Shown piece after piece: positions 1-6,357 of a DNA stretch of 7,370 nt. Made by a program: the position numbers and the translations under genes. This DNA comes from a virus (lineage: Duplodnaviria > Heunggongvirae > Uroviricota > Caudoviricetes). A model generated the notes under the pieces. The model made no database searches, was not told the DNA's origin, and worked only from the letters and a program-made list of their open reading frames with translations. Position 1 is the stretch's first letter; the number at the start of each line of letters is the position of its first letter. The stretch is from the IMG/VR virus record IMGVR_UViG_2681813313_000015, positions 1 through 7,370 of that record; one strand, written 5' to 3'.

Positions 1-1020
1 CTACTTGCTAACCACGAGCGGCAGATCCAGTGTTGGTGTGATTTTTGTTTTACGATCGTAAATCAACACCTGATTTTCTGTTTTATGCCCGCTGAAAATT
101 TGTTTGTCGCGACTGCTGCCTTCGTAATCTGAGATCCCCTTAGCTTTTATGTCGTGAAAATTGCACCCGAACGGAACGCCAACTTTTTGCTCGGCTGAGC
201 GTTTAGCCTGATTCCACCAGTTGTTCAGCGTTTTAGCTATGACTTTCCCGCCTTTGGTTGTATTGATCACATATTCGCATGTACAGGAAGATACATTTCG
301 GGCTAACTGGATCGCTGTACGTAATCGCGGTGACCATTCCTTGATTTGTTTGGTGCCGGTTTTGTTTTGCTCAATGTAGATCCCTTTATCCATAATATCC
401 TGCCATTTCAACTCAAGCACATCACCGAGCCTTGCCGCACAGAGATAGGAAATCTCCATTGCAATGCGTAACTGTGGAATTGCTTCCGCATATATCGCTG
501 CATACTGTTCATCGGTGATGTAAACAGTGCGGGCTTTAAGAGAGAATTTTCTGACTCCTTTACATGGGTTATTCTTCACGTATCCACGCTCATATCCCCA
601 CCCGTATACTCGACTCAGGCTTGCCAGTTCATGATTTGCCTGGGTCTTGCTCTCAAGCCCTCGTTTATCCATGAAAATTCTTACCTGCTCAGTTTTGACA
701 TTATCAGCAAGCACTTTTCCGAATACCATCAGCAACGCCTTCTGATGTTGTCGATAATCTTTTTGGGTTCGGGGGGCCAGTTCTGTAAATGCAGGGGAGT
801 CTATAAACATGTGCCATAATTTAGCTACGGTCATTATGTTGTGGAGTTTTGCTTTTTCCAGTTCATAATTTTGCCAGACTTTAGCTACGCTGGTTTTCCG
901 CACTCTTCCTAGCCCTATAGTTCTTGTACTTCCTTCTGGTTTCCACACGTAACTGTAACCATTCGATCTAACCCGCGGTGGCAGTACATTATCTTTTTTA
1001 TTTTTTCTTGGTCTTCCCAT
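1..1020 (-). CDS. int: Phage integrase, tyrosine recombinase (lambda Int family)
   Basis: 339-aa ORF. N-terminus MGRPRK..LPPRVRSNGYSYVW..GLGR resembles the lambda Int arm-binding region. Catalytic region aligns by eye to lambda Int: AARLGD (R212), EQNKTG (K235), FHDIK (H308-x-x-R311 position), SGHK (H333), LIYDRK (Y342). Stop codon at 1-3. Confidence 0.9.
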   Translation of the reverse strand: MGRPRKNKKDNVLPPRVRSNGYSYVWKPEGSTRTIGLGRVRKTSVAKVWQNYELEKAKLHNIMTVAKLWHMFIDSPAFTELAPRTQKDYRQHQKALLMVFGKVLADNVKTEQVRIFMDKRGLESKTQANHELASLSRVYGWGYERGYVKNNPCKGVRKFSLKARTVYITDEQYAAIYAEAIPQLRIAMEISYLCAARLGDVLELKWQDIMDKGIYIEQNKTGTKQIKEWSPRLRTAIQLARNVSSCTCEYVINTTKGGKVIAKTLNNWWNQAKRSAEQKVGVPFGCNFHDIKAKGISDYEGSSRDKQIFSGHKTENQVLIYDRKTKITPTLDLPLVVSK

Positions 1021-1307: not shown

Positions 1308-3782
1308 TTAAAAATCAGCCTGACTCGGGATCAGTTTTTGCCAGATAGCTGAAACGTATTTTGCCTGATAACGGGCGTCATCAAGTGCATTATGGCGCTC
1401 ACCTTCGAATGGGATAGCAGTTCTGGCATCGAAGTCTATGGCTTTCCCCAGCTCAACGATTGTGCGTACATCGCGATCGTTGTAGTAACGCCACGGGCAG
1501 GGGATCCCCTGCCGTTCGTATGAACGGCGCAAAATCGTGTTGTCGAAGTTGGCTCCATTTCCCCAGACCTGAACAAAAAATTCACCGGAGTTTTCGTCGA
1601 TAAATTCCCGCAATTGTAACAGTGCATCATCTAACGGGATTTCATCGGTCATAATGGCAGACTGCGCTTCACGTGATTGCTTCAGCCACCTTTTAATGAC
1701 GTCACGATCAATGACTCCGCCAGCAGTTTCCAGATCGATAGTCTTACTAAATTCCGGTCCCATATCTCCGGTTTGCGGATCGAAAAATATTGCACCTATT
1801 GAGATAATCGGGGCATCCGGATTTTTTCCCATGGTTTTAAGGTCGATCATTAGATGGTCACACGTCCTGCTGGTGGATGTGATAACGTGATGACCGTTCA
1901 CCGTAATTAAGGGATCTGCCGTCTCGCCAGTTTCACTATCGCTGGCGTGGTCCTGAGCGCTGCCAGCATTCTCCTTGTGTGGATGTTCAGCGCCTTCCAT
2001 TTTCTCCGAATCGTCTTCCTGAACTTCAACCTGGTTCTTGTCATCGAATGTTTCCTGGTATGTTGCGTCGCCCATCACCGCGCCACAATCAGGGCAGTTG
2101 CCGCCGCCGGTCTGACCGCAGGCGGTGCAGATTTTTTCCGGTTCCTGTTGCGCTACTGGTTCAGGTTGTTTCGTTTCTGGCTCGTTTTGTAACGCATTTG
2201 GGCTGTTTTGTTCCGCTTTCTGGCCGTTCTGTTCCGTTTCTTGCTGGTTCTGATTCACTGAATCGCGGGTTTCAATCCCCTTCACCCATTTCGGATCATT
2301 CGGGTCGCTAATCCCTGCAACAAATTCACCACGTGATACAGCAAGCAACTTATTGGCGTCAGGCTGGCTGATATTGGCTGCCTGCATAATTTTGTTTACT
2401 TCGTCAGCGGTAACTTTTACCGGCTCTGGTTGTGCGATCGTGTCAGATGCACCAGTATTTTGTTGTGAACCTGAGTACGTGCCGTTTTTACGTGCGAAGT
2501 ATTCCTCTTTTGTGATTTCCGTAGCTCCCAGGGCCAGTGCTTTTTCCAGACCAGAAAGTTTGTTTGCGCGACCGTATTTTTCGCCGTCCTTATCAGTGAA
2601 AAGGAAGTAGAACGGTCCCTCACGCTCTACAGATGGTTCGTCTTCCACTTCGCATTCGGTTTTTTCGTTGTCCGGCATTGCCGTTTCCACTGCATCAGTT
2701 TCTGGTACTGGTGACGGGAGAGTACCAGCTGTGCCCTGATTTGTTCCTTCGTCATCTTCAAACACGCCCTTGGTAGTCAGGTATTCAGTGATGTATTTGT
2801 TCAGTGCTACGGGATCTTTGTGAATGTCGATCGGACGCTCACGGACAAGGCCAAAAATAGTCTGACGGTCGTAGCGAACGGCATCGGGTTGTTTGCGCAT
2901 TGATGCGGAAATGTGCTTCCAGTCTTCGCGATCTTTGTCGATAACTTCATTTTTTGCCCAGCGATGGATGCTGCCGTCAATGTTTCCGGTATCAATATCG
3001 CCAGGCCAGAGAGCGTAGGCCAGTTCTTCATCCAGCGTTTTCCATGTCTGCTTGTATTCGCGACAAATGGCGGCAGTGACTGGGTTGATTTTTCCTGCTG
3101 AGTTTTCAGTGTTCTGTTGATTGACTCTGGCGCTGGCGAGATCAACAACAGACGTGTATTTTCCAGTCTCTTTGCGCTCTGCGTCCTGCCGTTTTTTCCA
3201 GTTACGTAATTCAGCCTGAATTTCGGGCCATTTGGCACCCGGATTACATTTGTGTTTAACCCATCCGATAGCGAACAGTTTGCGTTCCGGATACATAGCG
3301 TTAATTTCAGGCGTTTTCATCAGTGCTTCAACGATATGCCCGTCAAAGGTAGCAACGTCTTCCTGCAGTAATTCCTGCGCGTCAATCGCCATATCAACGG
3401 TGATGTTTTCACATGTACCGAACTTAACCAGGACCGCGTTCTGTACTTCAAGGGACAGCTTGTCAAAATTGACGTTCATCGGATCGGATTCTGGTTCGAC
3501 CGGAATAAAGGAAGCGGATTCCTCATCCCAGCGGTTTTCCTGCATATATTCAGCATCCCAGGAATCGAGGGCAGGGCGGGGTATACCGGGTTTATCCTCG
3601 CAAACAAGAAATTTATAAGCGCAGTCCTGAGCAGCCGGATAATGTTCCAGGAATTGCCAGTGAAATTTTGCGCGGGCGCGACGTTCATCACCGGCTTCAA
3701 TGGCAGTGGCTACAGCGACGGCACCTTCTTCCTTTATTGCCTGTTCATCAGGAATAGCAGCGCAAATAAAGACCTTACTCAT
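1308..3782 (-). CDS. Large multidomain prophage exonuclease (exodeoxyribonuclease VIII/RecE-like annotation family) with C-terminal DEDDh-type 3'-5' exonuclease domain and an internal zinc ribbon
   Basis: 824-aa uninterrupted ORF with ATG at 3780-3782 and GAGG about 10 nt upstream. C-terminal ~190 aa (nt ~1311-1892) carries DnaQ-like motifs: MIDLKTMG...IISIGAI, TIDLETAGG, GNGANFD, HNALDDA. Zinc ribbon C552-x2-C555-x6-C562-x2-C565 at nt 2088-2129. Central region LLAVSRGEFVAGISDPNDPKWVKGI is recalled as typical of ExoVIII-annotated prophage proteins; that recollection is unverified. Confidence 0.8.
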   Translation of the reverse strand: MSKVFICAAIPDEQAIKEEGAVAVATAIEAGDERRARAKFHWQFLEHYPAAQDCAYKFLVCEDKPGIPRPALDSWDAEYMQENRWDEESASFIPVEPESDPMNVNFDKLSLEVQNAVLVKFGTCENITVDMAIDAQELLQEDVATFDGHIVEALMKTPEINAMYPERKLFAIGWVKHKCNPGAKWPEIQAELRNWKKRQDAERKETGKYTSVVDLASARVNQQNTENSAGKINPVTAAICREYKQTWKTLDEELAYALWPGDIDTGNIDGSIHRWAKNEVIDKDREDWKHISASMRKQPDAVRYDRQTIFGLVRERPIDIHKDPVALNKYITEYLTTKGVFEDDEGTNQGTAGTLPSPVPETDAVETAMPDNEKTECEVEDEPSVEREGPFYFLFTDKDGEKYGRANKLSGLEKALALGATEITKEEYFARKNGTYSGSQQNTGASDTIAQPEPVKVTADEVNKIMQAANISQPDANKLLAVSRGEFVAGISDPNDPKWVKGIETRDSVNQNQQETEQNGQKAEQNSPNALQNEPETKQPEPVAQQEPEKICTACGQTGGGNCPDCGAVMGDATYQETFDDKNQVEVQEDDSEKMEGAEHPHKENAGSAQDHASDSETGETADPLITVNGHHVITSTSRTCDHLMIDLKTMGKNPDAPIISIGAIFFDPQTGDMGPEFSKTIDLETAGGVIDRDVIKRWLKQSREAQSAIMTDEIPLDDALLQLREFIDENSGEFFVQVWGNGANFDNTILRRSYERQGIPCPWRYYNDRDVRTIVELGKAIDFDARTAIPFEGERHNALDDARYQAKYVSAIWQKLIPSQADF

Positions 3783-3868
3783 TTTGTTTTAACCTCATTA
3801 CAGATTTCAGGGTGAACGAATCCCTGCCATTGCTGGCATTTTTAATCCGTTGGTATGGTGTTAATATG

Positions 3869-3888
3869 GCTGGAGGGTTATCCAGCCG
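3869..3888. other. Perfect 7-bp stem hairpin GGCTGGA-gggtta-TCCAGCC overlapping the stop codon of the 62-aa gene, upstream of the exonuclease gene
   Basis: Direct reading. A T-rich run (GGTGTTTCGTTATT) follows on the plus strand only. Role unknown. Confidence 0.4.
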
Positions 3889-4066
3889 GTGTTTCGTTAT
3901 TCAGGTACAGCGATACTTTTTTTACCGGGAGGCATTCACCAGAAATTTTTTGCTCGTCTCTTGCCTGGAGGCAGGATTCTTTACTGGCATAAATTCTGGT
4001 AATCACATTCTGTGATTCACCCGTTATAAGAAAAACCGTCATCATCAGTGCAAATGCTGAAGTCAT
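3878..4066 (-). CDS. Hypothetical small protein with hydrophobic N-terminal segment (possible membrane or secreted peptide)
   Basis: 62-aa ORF. Its ATG overlaps the stop of the upstream gene (ATGA on the minus strand at 4063-4066). SD-like GGAG lies 7 nt upstream. N-terminus MTSAFALMMTVFLITG is hydrophobic; two Cys residues. Function unknown. Confidence 0.5.
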   Translation of the reverse strand: MTSAFALMMTVFLITGESQNVITRIYASKESCLQARDEQKISGECLPVKKVSLYLNNETPAG

Positions 4067-4251
4067 TGACGTTCTCCGAAAATACCAAGTTCAAGAAGAG
4101 CAATTCGGGAAAGTATGGAATTATCATTGAGCAGATAAGGCTCATATTTCCTCATATTAATGGCATCTTCAGTAAACTCCCGGTTACTGAGCAGAACACC
4201 AATATCAAAACAACCTTCAGACGTATTAACGTTTGGTAATAACGTTTCCAT
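4063..4251 (-). CDS. Hypothetical protein (62 aa from ATG at 4251; a GTG-initiated 97-aa form would extend to 4356)
   Basis: The ATG at 4249-4251 is preceded by GAGGA with 7-nt spacing. The stop overlaps the start of the next gene (ATGA), indicating translational coupling. No recognisable motif. Confidence 0.5.
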   Translation of the reverse strand: METLLPNVNTSEGCFDIGVLLSNREFTEDAINMRKYEPYLLNDNSILSRIALLELGIFGERQ

Positions 4252-4283
4252 TATCGCGTCCTCAACAATGAATTTTGTGATGC

Positions 4284-4327
4284 GGTGCCTGGTGCCTCCA
4301 GGTGACGTTAACCAGTTAACAATTAAC
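4284..4327. repeat. Short tandem repeats: GGTGCCT x2 (4284-4297) and three TTAAC units (4308-4312, 4316-4320, 4323-4327)
   Basis: Direct reading. Lies upstream of the ATG at 4251, inside the GTG-extended form of that ORF. Confidence 0.5.
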
Positions 4328-4503
4328 GCCGGATACAGAGAATCCACCCATAACACTGTTTTTGGTTTTAACTGTTCCGCGTGCGCTCAGCCGCATTCAC
4401 CGCATCACAAAATTCACTTTAAAAACGGCGGCAGAGCAGTCACGGAGTAAAACTGATACCGCCAAACGTCACCAGAAAATTGATAACAGAGGGCGTTGCA
4501 GCG

Positions 4504-4754: not shown

Positions 4755-4955
4755 ATGACTAAAGAAGAATTTGTCTCTTATATTTTTGATAAAACGGTTG
4801 AAATGTATGCCGCTACTTACGGGTCCTGTAATCCTCTGAATAAACCAGAGGGGAAAGATGATTTCGACAAAATTTACCGCTTCTTGGAGGACCGCTATAT
4901 CAAAAGGTTAGAGGACGCAGGGATCAAATCCCCAGTGAAGTCACCATTGTCCTGA
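4755..4955 (+). CDS. Hypothetical 66-aa protein, moron-like gene convergent to the early-left operon
   Basis: ATG at 4755 preceded by AAGGA (4743-4747) with 7-nt spacing. AT-rich composition. The in-frame upstream extension (from GTG at 4542) has no RBS. Its 3' end overlaps the convergent minus-strand gene by 32 nt. Confidence 0.5.
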   Translation: MTKEEFVSYIFDKTVEMYAATYGSCNPLNKPEGKDDFDKIYRFLEDRYIKRLEDAGIKSPVKSPLS

Positions 4956-5289
4956 GAACTTGCAGGACGTCATGATCGTAACTTCCATCCAAACCGCGAC
5001 GGCAAATTGCTTCTCGTATTACCGGAAGCAGTTCGCTGGAAATCTCGGTGCATATTTCACCTGATAATACGCTTGGCTCAAGTGAGAATATTGGTGAACT
5101 TACGGTCTTGGTCTCGACAGTTTCAGAGTCAGTGCCAACATTATAAAGCTCAACGAAAGCGGTCTTGATTTTCCGGGCCAGATCTTTTGCTGGCTCGCTT
5201 GCAATATCTTTCCCGATTTCTCGCAGCACAGAATGCAATGTATGAGCTGCTGTTTTCTGTACATCAGACGGTAAATCTTTAAATTCCAT
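4924..5289 (-). CDS. Hypothetical mildly acidic protein (121 aa from ATG at 5289; alternative ATG at 5301 gives 125 aa)
   Basis: The ATG at 5287-5289 is preceded by GAGG with 6-nt spacing. The alternative ATG at 5299-5301 overlaps the upstream stop (TGATG). Second gene of a coupled pair downstream of the putative PL/OL. No recognisable motif. Confidence 0.55.
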   Translation of the reverse strand: MEFKDLPSDVQKTAAHTLHSVLREIGKDIASEPAKDLARKIKTAFVELYNVGTDSETVETKTVSSPIFSLEPSVLSGEICTEISSELLPVIREAICRRGLDGSYDHDVLQVLRTMVTSLGI

Positions 5290-5300
5290 CGTCAGCCTCA

Positions 5301-5453
5301 TCAGTCAGTGTTTCTGGCTAACCAGCAACGCGCGCCAGATCCGGTTTTAAACGTTTTGCTTTTGGTATATGTCATCGCGGTGAACGTACCGCCCTGGTTG
5401 GGGAACACGCCGTACACCAGAGATTCGTTGTTGCCAAGATCGATAGTATCCAT
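5301..5453 (-). CDS. Hypothetical small protein (50 aa from ATG at 5453; the track's 81-aa form starting at 5546 is probably not translated)
   Basis: The ATG at 5451-5453 is preceded by GAGGT with 4-5-nt spacing. The upstream ATG at 5546 lies inside the operator and promoter spacer and has no SD. Confidence 0.4.
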   Translation of the reverse strand: MDTIDLGNNESLVYGVFPNQGGTFTAMTYTKSKTFKTGSGARCWLARNTD

Positions 5454-5530
5454 GTTGACCTCATTTCCCCTTAACGCCGGGGTAGCGGAACTGTTTGCTG
5501 AGAACACCGTGCGGTGTCTTGATGGATCGT

Positions 5531-5582
5531 AATTTAGTTTTCTCATGAATATTGGTCAAGTACTTTTAATGAGAAAACTCAA
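5531..5582 (-). promoter_or_regulatory. OL/PL-like operator pair and leftward early promoter
   Basis: Two inverted copies of the operator motif (5534-5546 as the complement of ATGAGAAAACTAA; 5569-5582 ATGAGAAAACTCAA) flank a 22-bp spacer. On the minus strand: -35 TTGACC (5559-5554), 17-bp spacer, -10 TAAATT (5536-5531). Confidence 0.55.
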
Positions 5583-5587
5583 TATTT

Positions 5588-5627
5588 AATGCAAAATAAA
5601 GCCAATACATTGAAATGTAAGGCTTTA
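5588..5627 (-). terminator. Putative intrinsic terminator downstream of the repressor gene
   Basis: Interrupted hairpin (outer stem TAAAGCC/GGCTTTA at 5597-5603 and 5621-5627; inner stem TACAT/ATGTA) followed on the minus strand by UUUUGCAUU. The stem is AT-rich, so it is weak. Confidence 0.35.
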
Positions 5628-5644
5628 AAATTTGTGAAGGGGGG

Positions 5645-6052
5645 TTATTGATGTTTGTTACGTTTGCGAGCTTCTAGTAGCTCGGTGAATAGGCGATTAA
5701 AATTCTCAACGCGGGCACGGAGTTCGCTGATTTGTGCTTGCTGCTCTGATTTTGGAAGTGCGCGATACAATCGCAACATCTCCAACTCATCTTCCGATAA
5801 GTCTAAGGCGCTGTTGAGTGCAACTGGTGGATCTGGTGTTTTATCCTCGTCACCAAACAGTATCCAAGTTGGTGAACATTGCAATACCTCAGCCAGGCGA
5901 TGCAAATTTTGCCCGCGCGGGGCTGTATGGTCGCTTTCCCATAGTGAAATTGATGAGCCAGATACGCCAGCAGCTTTGCTTAAATCGTTTTGACTTAAAC
6001 CAACCTGTTTGCGTCTTTCTCTAATTCGTTGACCTAAAGTTTTCTCGTTCAT
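5645..6052 (-). CDS. Prophage immunity repressor, XRE/cI-type HTH, without an S24 peptidase domain (RacR-like)
   Basis: 135-aa ORF. N-terminal HTH_3-type motif (GQRIRERRKQVGLSQNDLSKAAGVSGSSISLWE). Divergent from a Cro-like gene across a 77-bp region carrying palindromic operators. No Ala-Gly/Ser-Lys autocleavage module was seen. Confidence 0.85.
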   Translation of the reverse strand: MNEKTLGQRIRERRKQVGLSQNDLSKAAGVSGSSISLWESDHTAPRGQNLHRLAEVLQCSPTWILFGDEDKTPDPPVALNSALDLSEDELEMLRLYRALPKSEQQAQISELRARVENFNRLFTELLEARKRNKHQ

Positions 6053-6129: not shown

Positions 6130-6357
6130 ATGTTTAAATCAGACGTAATTAATTTTTATGGGACGAAAGCCAAAGTAGCGAAAGCTGCTGGTGTTGATCC
6201 ATCTGCTGTTTCTCAATGGGGGGAACTGGTTCCTGAAGGTCGCGCGATGCGCCTGCAAGAGGCATCCGGCGGGGAACTTCAGTACGACCCCAAAGTTTAT
6301 GACGAATATCGTAAGGCAAAGCGGGCGGGGCGGTTGAACAATGAAAATCACCCCTGA
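6130..6357 (+). CDS. Cro/YdaS-like small HTH regulator
   Basis: 75 aa from ATG at 6130 with GGAGG 4 nt upstream. Contains the motif FYGTKAKVAKAAGVDPSAVSQW typical of Cro/YdaS-like proteins. The track's TTG start at 6103 would place the first codons inside the operator palindrome. Confidence 0.8.
   Translation: MFKSDVINFYGTKAKVAKAAGVDPSAVSQWGELVPEGRAMRLQEASGGELQYDPKVYDEYRKAKRAGRLNNENHP

Follow-up and report, generated by a model that had tools for sequence, protein, structure and literature searches.

The closest described system is the dicBF operon of the Qin prophage in Escherichia coli K-12. DicA acts at dicBp to repress this operon; its polycistronic RNA gives rise to DicF by processing, and a ydfABC-dicFB-ydfD transcript is detectable (PMC10448788). 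In the K-12 MG1655 record the genes follow each other in the order dicF, dicB, ydfD (labelled 'lysis protein') and ydfE, a pseudogene. K-12 DicB forms a complex with MinC that ZipA directs to the septal ring, where it depolymerises FtsZ; the same interaction with MinC blocks the ManYZ-dependent entry of lambda DNA (PMC6832061). K-12 DicB is read from an internal start of a longer frame, which fits the title of Cam et al. (1988) as it is cited in PMC8835842.

The second gene of the pair, ydfD, encodes a lysis protein. Over-expression of K-12 YdfD leads to rapid, division-dependent lysis, which is prevented by co-expression of either DicB or SulA (PMC8835842). Lu et al. (2022) attributed this lysis to the binding and inhibition of IspG, on the basis of pull-down, ITC, FRET and rescue experiments, rescue being obtained by over-expression of ispG or by HMBPP in the medium (PMC8835842). 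The negative charge of the YdfD C-terminal domain was invoked for the inhibition. Two conserved cysteine residues were also noted, and Cys mutants still bind IspG (PMC8835842).

Identity of the gene pair and of its operon

The window, that is the whole stretch of 7,370 nucleotides of viral DNA analysed here, includes two 62-codon ORFs on the minus strand (4251..4063 and 4066..3878; Table 1), identified from the ORF listing and from a reading of the reverse complement. The upstream ORF belongs to the DicB family, Pfam PF05358 (E 6.4e-37, 125.5 bits against a cut-off of 27, positions 1-62 of 62), and matches the NCBIfam model NF049927, 'cell division inhibition protein DicB' (114.2 bits against a cut-off of 100). 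It is 63% identical to K-12 DicB (BLASTP, E 4e-24). The downstream ORF belongs to DUF1482, Pfam PF07358 (E 1.7e-14, 53.9 bits against a cut-off of 25, positions 1-57 of 57), and matches phrog_1092 (E 7e-33); its alignment with K-12 YdfD is ungapped and full-length (45% identity over 62 aa, BLASTP, E 3e-20). The complete downstream product, including Cys32 and Cys45, is MTSAFALMMTVFLITGESQNVITRIYASKESCLQARDEQKISGECLPVKKVSLYLNNETPAG. DNA 100% identical to the locus occurs in E. coli chromosomes (megablast), where RefSeq annotates dicB (WP_000449175.1), a 'DUF1482 family protein' (WP_000199477.1) and an 'exonuclease'. The identification of the two genes as dicB and ydfD appears nearly certain from these matches. 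The pair is already known: both are characterised prophage genes, and the exact sequence is annotated in RefSeq.

The architecture agrees with the preliminary description of this DNA, which had placed a pair of small coupled genes upstream of the exonuclease at 3878-4251; the two genes lie in a lambdoid early-left operon, directly ahead of the exonuclease gene. These coordinates delimit the pair exactly, 4251 being the first base of the upstream ATG and 3878 the last base of the downstream stop codon. The two Shine-Dalgarno sequences and the ATGA overlap that it reported are all present on the minus strand, and the downstream product is indeed a protein of 62 aa that begins with MTSAFALMMTVFLITG and has two cysteines (Cys32 and Cys45). 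The same description held that no sequence similarity could be asserted. This is incorrect, as both ORFs match curated families over their full length (PF05358 and NF049927 for the upstream ORF, PF07358 for the downstream ORF, by the kind of homology search that it had itself suggested) and identical sequences carry RefSeq annotation.

Table 1. Coordinates of the dicB-ydfD pair, its expression signals and the surrounding operon (window positions)
Feature	Position	Strand	Basis or detail
Exonuclease gene, 824 aa, YdfE-type, Rv2179c-like 3'-5' exonuclease C-terminal domain	1308..3782	-	Pfam PF16473, E 8.5e-62; RefSeq 'exonuclease'
Mosaic cassette relative to K-12 Qin: dicB from codon 19 or so onwards, the whole of ydfD and some 33 nt on its 3' side	3845..4195	-	Segment identities
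ydfD-family CDS (DUF1482), 62 aa, small lysis-protein homologue	3878..4066	-	ATG 4066..4064, TAA 3880..3878
Stretch with invariant Cys32 (3973..3971), Cys45 (3934..3932) and EQ motif	3932..3973	-	Alignment: C32, E38, Q39, C45 and P47 invariant
Hydrophobic run AFALMMTVFLITG, ydfD codons 4-16, followed by Glu17	4019..4057	-	Hydropathy calculation
dicB CDS, 62 aa (METLLPNVNTSEGCF...GERQ), window-type allele	4063..4251	-	ATG 4251..4249, TGA 4065..4063
ATGA stop/start overlap (dicB TGA, ydfD ATG)	4063..4066	-	Direct sequence read
Shine-Dalgarno GGAG within the dicB 3' end, 7-nt spacer to ydfD ATG	4074..4077	-	Direct sequence read
In-frame upstream extension of the dicB frame from GTG at 4356 (97-aa ORF, 4356..4063)	4252..4356	-	ORF listing
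Shine-Dalgarno GAGG, 8-nt spacer to dicB ATG	4260..4263	-	Direct sequence read
DicF sRNA gene with terminator hairpin, directly upstream in the same operon	4426..4477	-	Rfam RF00039, 72.5 bits against gathering 48, E 5.6e-15, full length
Promoter-like site TTGACC-17-TAAATT at the dicBp position, between dicA and the ydfA homologue	5531..5559	-	Consensus scan
dicA-type repressor gene, 135 aa, operon regulator	5645..6052	-	NCBIfam NF007257 'transcriptional repressor DicA', 238 bits against cut-off 101
dicC-type gene for a Cro-like regulator, 75 aa, divergent from dicA	6130..6357	+	NCBIfam NF007282 DicC, 167.6 bits against cut-off 130; Pfam P22_Cro

The expression signals of the two genes are conserved. 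An ATGA or GTGA overlap was found in all E. coli alleles examined and also in other genera, and both Shine-Dalgarno sequences are conserved along with it. The overlap and the internal Shine-Dalgarno sequence imply that translation of ydfD is coupled to that of dicB. The dicB frame is open further upstream, giving a 97-aa ORF of which residues 36-97 align with the Pfam DicB model; DicB itself corresponds to the internal ATG start. This longer frame is also found at other Escherichia loci. Three plus-strand ORFs in the region (3812-4015, 4048-4239 and 4160-4450) were rejected as shadows: they have no RefSeq annotation and the substitutions fit the minus-strand frames. A terminator scan detected no terminator-like site on the minus strand between ydfD and the exonuclease; its five terminator-like matches all lie on the plus strand, against 2.5 expected from shuffles, and carry no information.

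The gene order in the window is that of K-12 Qin: dicC / dicA - ydfA - ... - dicF - dicB - ydfD - ydfE-type exonuclease - int. DicF differs from the K-12 sequence by a single base, the dicA-type product is 56% identical to K-12 DicA, and a DUF1391/YdfA homologue is present (Pfam). The exonuclease is full-length, occupies the place of the K-12 pseudogene ydfE and is the last gene of the operon before xis/int. The -35 element (TTGACC) of the promoter-like site aligns with the dicA-ydfA intergenic region of K-12, the place of dicBp there, and the site would act as dicBp in the window. Taken as a whole, the pair very probably represents dicB-ydfD in the distal part of a DicA-repressed dicBF operon, carried by a Qin/PPompW-like lambdoid E. 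coli prophage, with activities predicted to be of the K-12 type.

By analogy with K-12, transcription would start at dicBp, upstream of the ydfA homologue, and would have to read through the DicF terminator in order to reach dicB and ydfD. The ATGA overlap and the Shine-Dalgarno sequence of ydfD itself would then allow its translation by coupling to dicB. By homology, the 62-aa DicB is expected to be a cytoplasmic protein that binds MinC and is brought to the septal ring via ZipA, with depolymerisation of FtsZ and a block of division. The interaction with MinC may also exclude lambda-like phages by blocking ManYZ-dependent DNA entry. The downstream protein, as a YdfD-type lysis protein, would inhibit IspG, an enzyme of the MEP/isoprenoid pathway, and hence envelope synthesis. 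Through coupling, the lysis protein would be produced alongside the block of division that keeps it in check.

A divergent allele class under purifying selection

The biochemical activities considered above are all deduced for the window proteins from K-12 homologues to which they are 63% (DicB) and 45% (YdfD) identical, and the divergence is unevenly distributed. DNA identity to K-12 is 98% from 4501 to 4196 (DicF to about codon 18 of dicB), drops to 54% from 4195 to 3845 and is 87% from 3844 to 3783. Like its K-12 Qin counterpart (b1575), the window DicB has 62 aa, starts at an internal ATG of a longer frame, lies about 175 nt downstream of dicF under DicA/DicC control and has a stop codon that overlaps the ydfD start; the N-terminal 35 residues of the two proteins are nearly identical. 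In contrast, the two have almost nothing in common over the C-terminal 27 residues (YEPYLLNDNSILSRIALLELGIFGERQ against QERELLNKICIVSMLARLRLMPKGCAQ). The net charge of DicB is -5 in the window and +3 in K-12, and the K-12 residues Cys45 and Cys60 are absent from the window protein. In view of this divergent C-terminus and the reversal of charge, the MinC, ZipA and ManYZ activities of the window allele are not guaranteed. K-12-like activities nevertheless seem likely for the pair on grounds of homology.

YdfD shows a similar combination of likeness and difference. The window protein and K-12 YdfD (b1576) are of nearly the same length (62 against 63 aa), align without gaps and occupy the same position with the same ATGA coupling to dicB. 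They share hydrophobic residues 4-15 followed by Gly-Glu, as well as Cys32, Cys45, an EQK motif and a C-terminal PAG. However, only 45% of their residues are identical, and the C-terminal domain, which has a net charge of -4 in K-12, is neutral in the window.

The 374-bp pair is covered over at least 80% of its length in 1,020 of 5,426 complete E. coli genomes, about a fifth, and 604 records are at least 99% identical to it. Carriers of this allele class include EHEC strains of serogroups O26, O103, O111 and O157. Homologues of YdfD were also detected by tblastn in 26 phage records, among them the PPompW/Stx2a phages of EHEC (80.6% aa identity), mEp460 and Klebsiella prophages (about 39%); in some of these records a 'putative YdfD family protein' adjoins a 'cell division inhibition protein'. 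In strain AR_0015 a window-type DicB is paired with a K-12-like YdfD, and therefore the two halves of the cassette recombine independently.

Both genes are under purifying selection. Codon alignments of alleles from genomes and phages, analysed by the Nei-Gojobori method, give a dN/dS of 0.07-0.13 for DicB within the window allele class; the comparison with the AR_0015 allele, for example, involves 20.5 synonymous and 7.5 non-synonymous differences. For YdfD the ratio is about 0.2-0.4 in pairs with unsaturated dS. Twelve positions of YdfD (M1, F5, L7, V11, G16, C32, E38, Q39, C45, P47, P60 and A61) are invariant in an alignment of nine sequences.

The YdfD-type protein, its partners and alternative readings

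The preliminary description saw a signal peptide or a single-pass membrane segment at the start of the downstream protein. The N-terminus is hydrophobic as described, and residues 4-16 are hydrophobic in all nine aligned homologues, but the uninterrupted run extends over only about 13-15 residues, which is short for a canonical transmembrane helix. The best 19-mer has a summed Hessa energy of +6.2 kcal/mol. Measured against a hydrophobic helix of about 19-21 residues, the protein appears to lack a membrane-spanning helix of the kind found in holins and canonical single-pass proteins, and Pfam returned no holin family match. An I-T-G|E site after the run obeys the -3/-1 rule. The N-terminus thus resembles the h-region of a signal peptide, or a short anchor, more closely than it does a canonical transmembrane helix.

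No basic residue occurs in the first 16 positions of any YdfD homologue, and such a missing basic n-region is atypical for a signal peptide. The short signal-like N-terminus and the two invariant cysteines fit awkwardly with a purely cytoplasmic mechanism of IspG inhibition. A PDB sequence search found no solved relative of either protein, and single-sequence AlphaFold2 gave low-confidence models (pLDDT 58 for YdfD and 53 for DicB).

In a scan of GTDB species genomes, YdfD homologues were found only in Enterobacteriaceae; two MAGs labelled Veillonella and Pseudomonas that contain such homologues are probably mis-binned. At every intact locus the start of ydfD overlaps the stop of an upstream small ORF, although the identity of this partner varies. 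Escherichia has DicB in this place; Klebsiella, Leclercia and some Enterobacter have a protein of 37-64 aa (phrog_22279/31129), and Enterobacter hormaechei, Buttiauxella and Kluyvera one of 66-89 aa (phrog_3722). No Pfam family was found for these alternative partners. The 37-64-aa type, to which the profile comparison was confined, shows no similarity to the DicB alignment (hhalign probability 0.1%), and the idea that these Klebsiella-type proteins are distant relatives of DicB was rejected on this basis.

Several other readings of the pair can be weighed against these data. The location in a prophage, together with a frameshift in one Shigella flexneri copy of ydfD, might suggest chance open frames or decayed cryptic-prophage pseudogenes with no coding function. 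However, some 1,020 genomes, as well as phage genomes, carry both frames intact, dN/dS values are well under 1, conservation extends to both Shine-Dalgarno sequences and the overlap, and the K-12 homologues have demonstrated activities. Conservation and dN/dS refute this reading, whose probability is negligible; lack of conservation among related prophages, or of purifying selection, was what the preliminary description would have counted against its coding pair. That description also proposed that the hydrophobic protein could inhibit division in the manner of Kil or KilR, or else serve as an exclusion factor in the membrane, its family being left unassigned. Such a role would suit a small protein with a hydrophobic N-terminus whose gene lies close to the exonuclease in a lambdoid early-left operon. 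A division inhibitor that also excludes phages is indeed encoded at the locus, but it is the neighbouring, non-hydrophobic DicB, and the hydrophobic protein belongs to the YdfD/DUF1482 family, of which the K-12 lysis protein is a member. Neither ORF has a Kil/KilR match (Pfam, E at most 0.1; NCBIfam, E at most 0.01), DicB and DUF1482 being the only families returned. There is no match to a PADLOC defence model for either ORF, exclusion by DicB having no model in that collection. Moreover, deletion of ydfD in K-12 has a minimal effect on lambda exclusion (PMC6832061). A Kil/KilR-type identity of the hydrophobic protein is contradicted by the family assignments and is highly improbable.

The remaining readings accept the gene identities. 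In one, the YdfD-type protein would have its site of action in the membrane or periplasm, and its target would not be cytoplasmic IspG: the N-terminal segment, serving as a short anchor or as a signal peptide for Sec, would deliver an exported domain of about 45 aa, held by a Cys disulfide, that disturbs envelope or septal synthesis. The hydrophobic run has the length of an h-region and is too short for a transmembrane helix, the conserved motifs I-T-G|E, V-S-G|E and L-T-G|E fit the -3/-1 rule, and neither Cys32 nor Cys45 varies between Escherichia, Klebsiella and other genera. The binding of IspG by Cys mutants (PMC8835842) points in the same direction, since it leaves the conservation of the cysteines unexplained by the IspG model. 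However, the n-region of every homologue is devoid of the basic residues typical of Sec signal peptides, the structural model of YdfD is unreliable and the pull-down, ITC, FRET and rescue data favour IspG (PMC8835842), so that export of the protein is unlikely, if worth bearing in mind. Less probable still is a dedicated toxin-antidote pair, in which DicB would neutralise YdfD directly and the divergent cassette would have arisen as the C-terminus of DicB co-evolved with the YdfD it neutralises. Such a pair would account for the overlapping, co-transcribed small genes, for the prevention of YdfD lysis by co-expressed DicB (PMC8835842), for a mosaic breakpoint that puts the C-terminal two-thirds of DicB and ydfD into one divergent block, and for the constant coupling of ydfD to some upstream small ORF in other genera. 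Against it, the unrelated SulA also prevents lysis (PMC8835842), and protection therefore operates via the division block and not by direct binding. The allele combination of AR_0015 shows that co-inheritance is not strict, and the partners in other genera, as far as the 37-64-aa type was compared, are unrelated to DicB (hhalign probability 0.1%).

It has a small chance of being true, comparable to that of an exported YdfD, that YdfD-family lysis proteins stand obligately behind an interchangeable coupled small 'brake', represented by DicB in Escherichia and by the phrog_22279/31129 or phrog_3722 proteins in Klebsiella, Enterobacter, Leclercia, Kluyvera and Buttiauxella, and that the window cassette is a distinct specificity variant. 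If so, the alternative partners would be new division inhibitors, and the cassette, with its acidic DicB C-terminus and neutral YdfD, would differ in function and not be just a neutral allele. The preferred reading is nevertheless a dicB-ydfD pair of the K-12 type.

Comparison with related phages and lysis systems

As a discovery the pair carries little weight. Its value lies in setting the roles straight: of the two products, the hydrophobic one is the lysis protein and its neighbour the division inhibitor and exclusion factor. Moreover, about a fifth of complete E. coli genomes carry a class of DicB/YdfD alleles that is strongly unlike the K-12 proteins, the only ones that have been tested. 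The signal-peptide-like N-terminus and the invariant cysteine pair of YdfD are features that the published model of cytoplasmic IspG inhibition does not explain.

The same module and flanking genes are found in mEp460 and in the PPompW / Stx2a-phage hybrids of EHEC. The window is 95.5% identical to PPompW phages over 62% of its length and 92.8% identical to mEp460 over 71%. The PPompW YdfD is the closer of the two to the window protein (80.6% identity), that of mEp460 being more distant (46.8%). Unlike the window, PPompW has a GTGA overlap, with a GTG start for ydfD, and a frameshifted exonuclease.

An analogy of YdfD with single-gene lysis proteins has been drawn (PMC8835842). YdfD itself is unlikely to be the main lysis gene of the phage, because its operon, the early-left one, belongs to a temperate phage whose lysis cassette lies elsewhere. 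The likeness to phiX174 E, Q-beta A2, M Lys, lambda Kil and Rac KilR is one of functional analogy only: the single-gene lysis proteins and Kil/KilR have no sequence relationship to the window proteins, and the common ground is that of small phage proteins which inhibit one host enzyme or the divisome, with death or arrest of the host as the outcome.

Mosaic structure of the dicB-ydfD pair

DNA alignment of the window with Qin, the cryptic prophage of E. coli K-12 that carries the reference dicBF operon (L002), reveals a mosaic with abrupt breakpoints at dicB-ydfD. The two sequences are 98% identical between DicF and roughly codon 18 of dicB, whereas identity falls to 54% over the remainder of dicB, the whole of ydfD and approximately 33 nt of 3' flank, and returns to 87% beyond this point. 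The switch from 98% to 54% therefore places one recombination boundary within the dicB coding sequence. Compared with K-12 DicB, the window protein has a different C-terminal 27 aa (net charge -5 in the window and +3 in K-12).

Features of the window and of two comparison loci
Feature	Position	Strand	Matches
824-aa exonuclease	1308-3782	-	
Hairpin TGCCA-GCAA-TGGCA	3825-3838		
Mosaic versus Qin	3845-4195	-	
8-bp inverted repeat, core GGCTGG...CCAGCC	3867-3888		
66-aa ORF	4755-4955	+	phrog_34441; RefSeq hypothetical
121-aa ORF	4924-5289	-	phrog_33007; no Pfam; RefSeq hypothetical
dicBp-like promoter region	5440-5660	-	
DicA homologue	5645-6052	-	
dicB-ydfD, E. coli AR_0015	550-938		
Broken ydfD, Shigella flexneri	~1465-1660		

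Reassortment, decay and alternative ydfD partners

In E. coli AR_0015 (L005), a window-type DicB is joined to a K-12-like YdfD; the dicB and ydfD alleles therefore reassort independently. This YdfD is 67 aa long, with a C-terminal extension, and the gene directly 5' of dicB encodes a Rha family regulator in place of dicF. In the Shigella flexneri locus (L031), dicB is intact and the ydfD frame is broken: translation leaves the frame after a GTG, and the tblastn match covers residues 11-62 only. The lysis gene may thus be decaying there, with the division inhibitor kept.

In Klebsiella, Enterobacter, Leclercia, Kluyvera and Buttiauxella (L010, L018-L026, L029 and L030; near position 1501 in each locus), translation of the ydfD homologue is always coupled to that of a small upstream ORF other than dicB, through an ATGA or TGATG/TAATG overlap. 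The partner is of a phrog_22279/31129 type (37-64 aa), of a phrog_3722 type (66-89 aa) or a fourth ORF; no Pfam family was found for any of them.

Comparison of the flanking operon with K-12

Two inverted repeats lie near the ydfD 3' end, the 8-bp repeat spanning the stop codon and the hairpin, also present in K-12, in the ydfD-exonuclease spacer. On the minus strand, no T-run follows either of them. Could they be candidate processing or stability sites?

The exonuclease gene is intact, unlike its K-12 counterpart, the pseudogene ydfE. At its C-terminus the encoded protein carries an Rv2179c-like 3'-5' exonuclease domain (E = 8.5e-62). The label common in phage records, exodeoxyribonuclease VIII, looks inaccurate, since the match to the corresponding RecE model is partial and below threshold (280 bits, cut-off 1269).

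Between the ydfA homologue and dicF, the ydfB and ydfC genes of K-12 are replaced by the 121-aa ORF, towards which the 66-aa ORF converges, their 3' ends overlapping. An opposite-strand gene within a dicBF operon is unusual.

The dicBp-like region shares with K-12 the -35 element TTGACC, the 5' leader and the ydfA start, whereas the operator and -10 region differ and the DicA homologue shares only 56% identity with K-12 DicA. The arrangement fits the same operon scaffold with a different immunity specificity.
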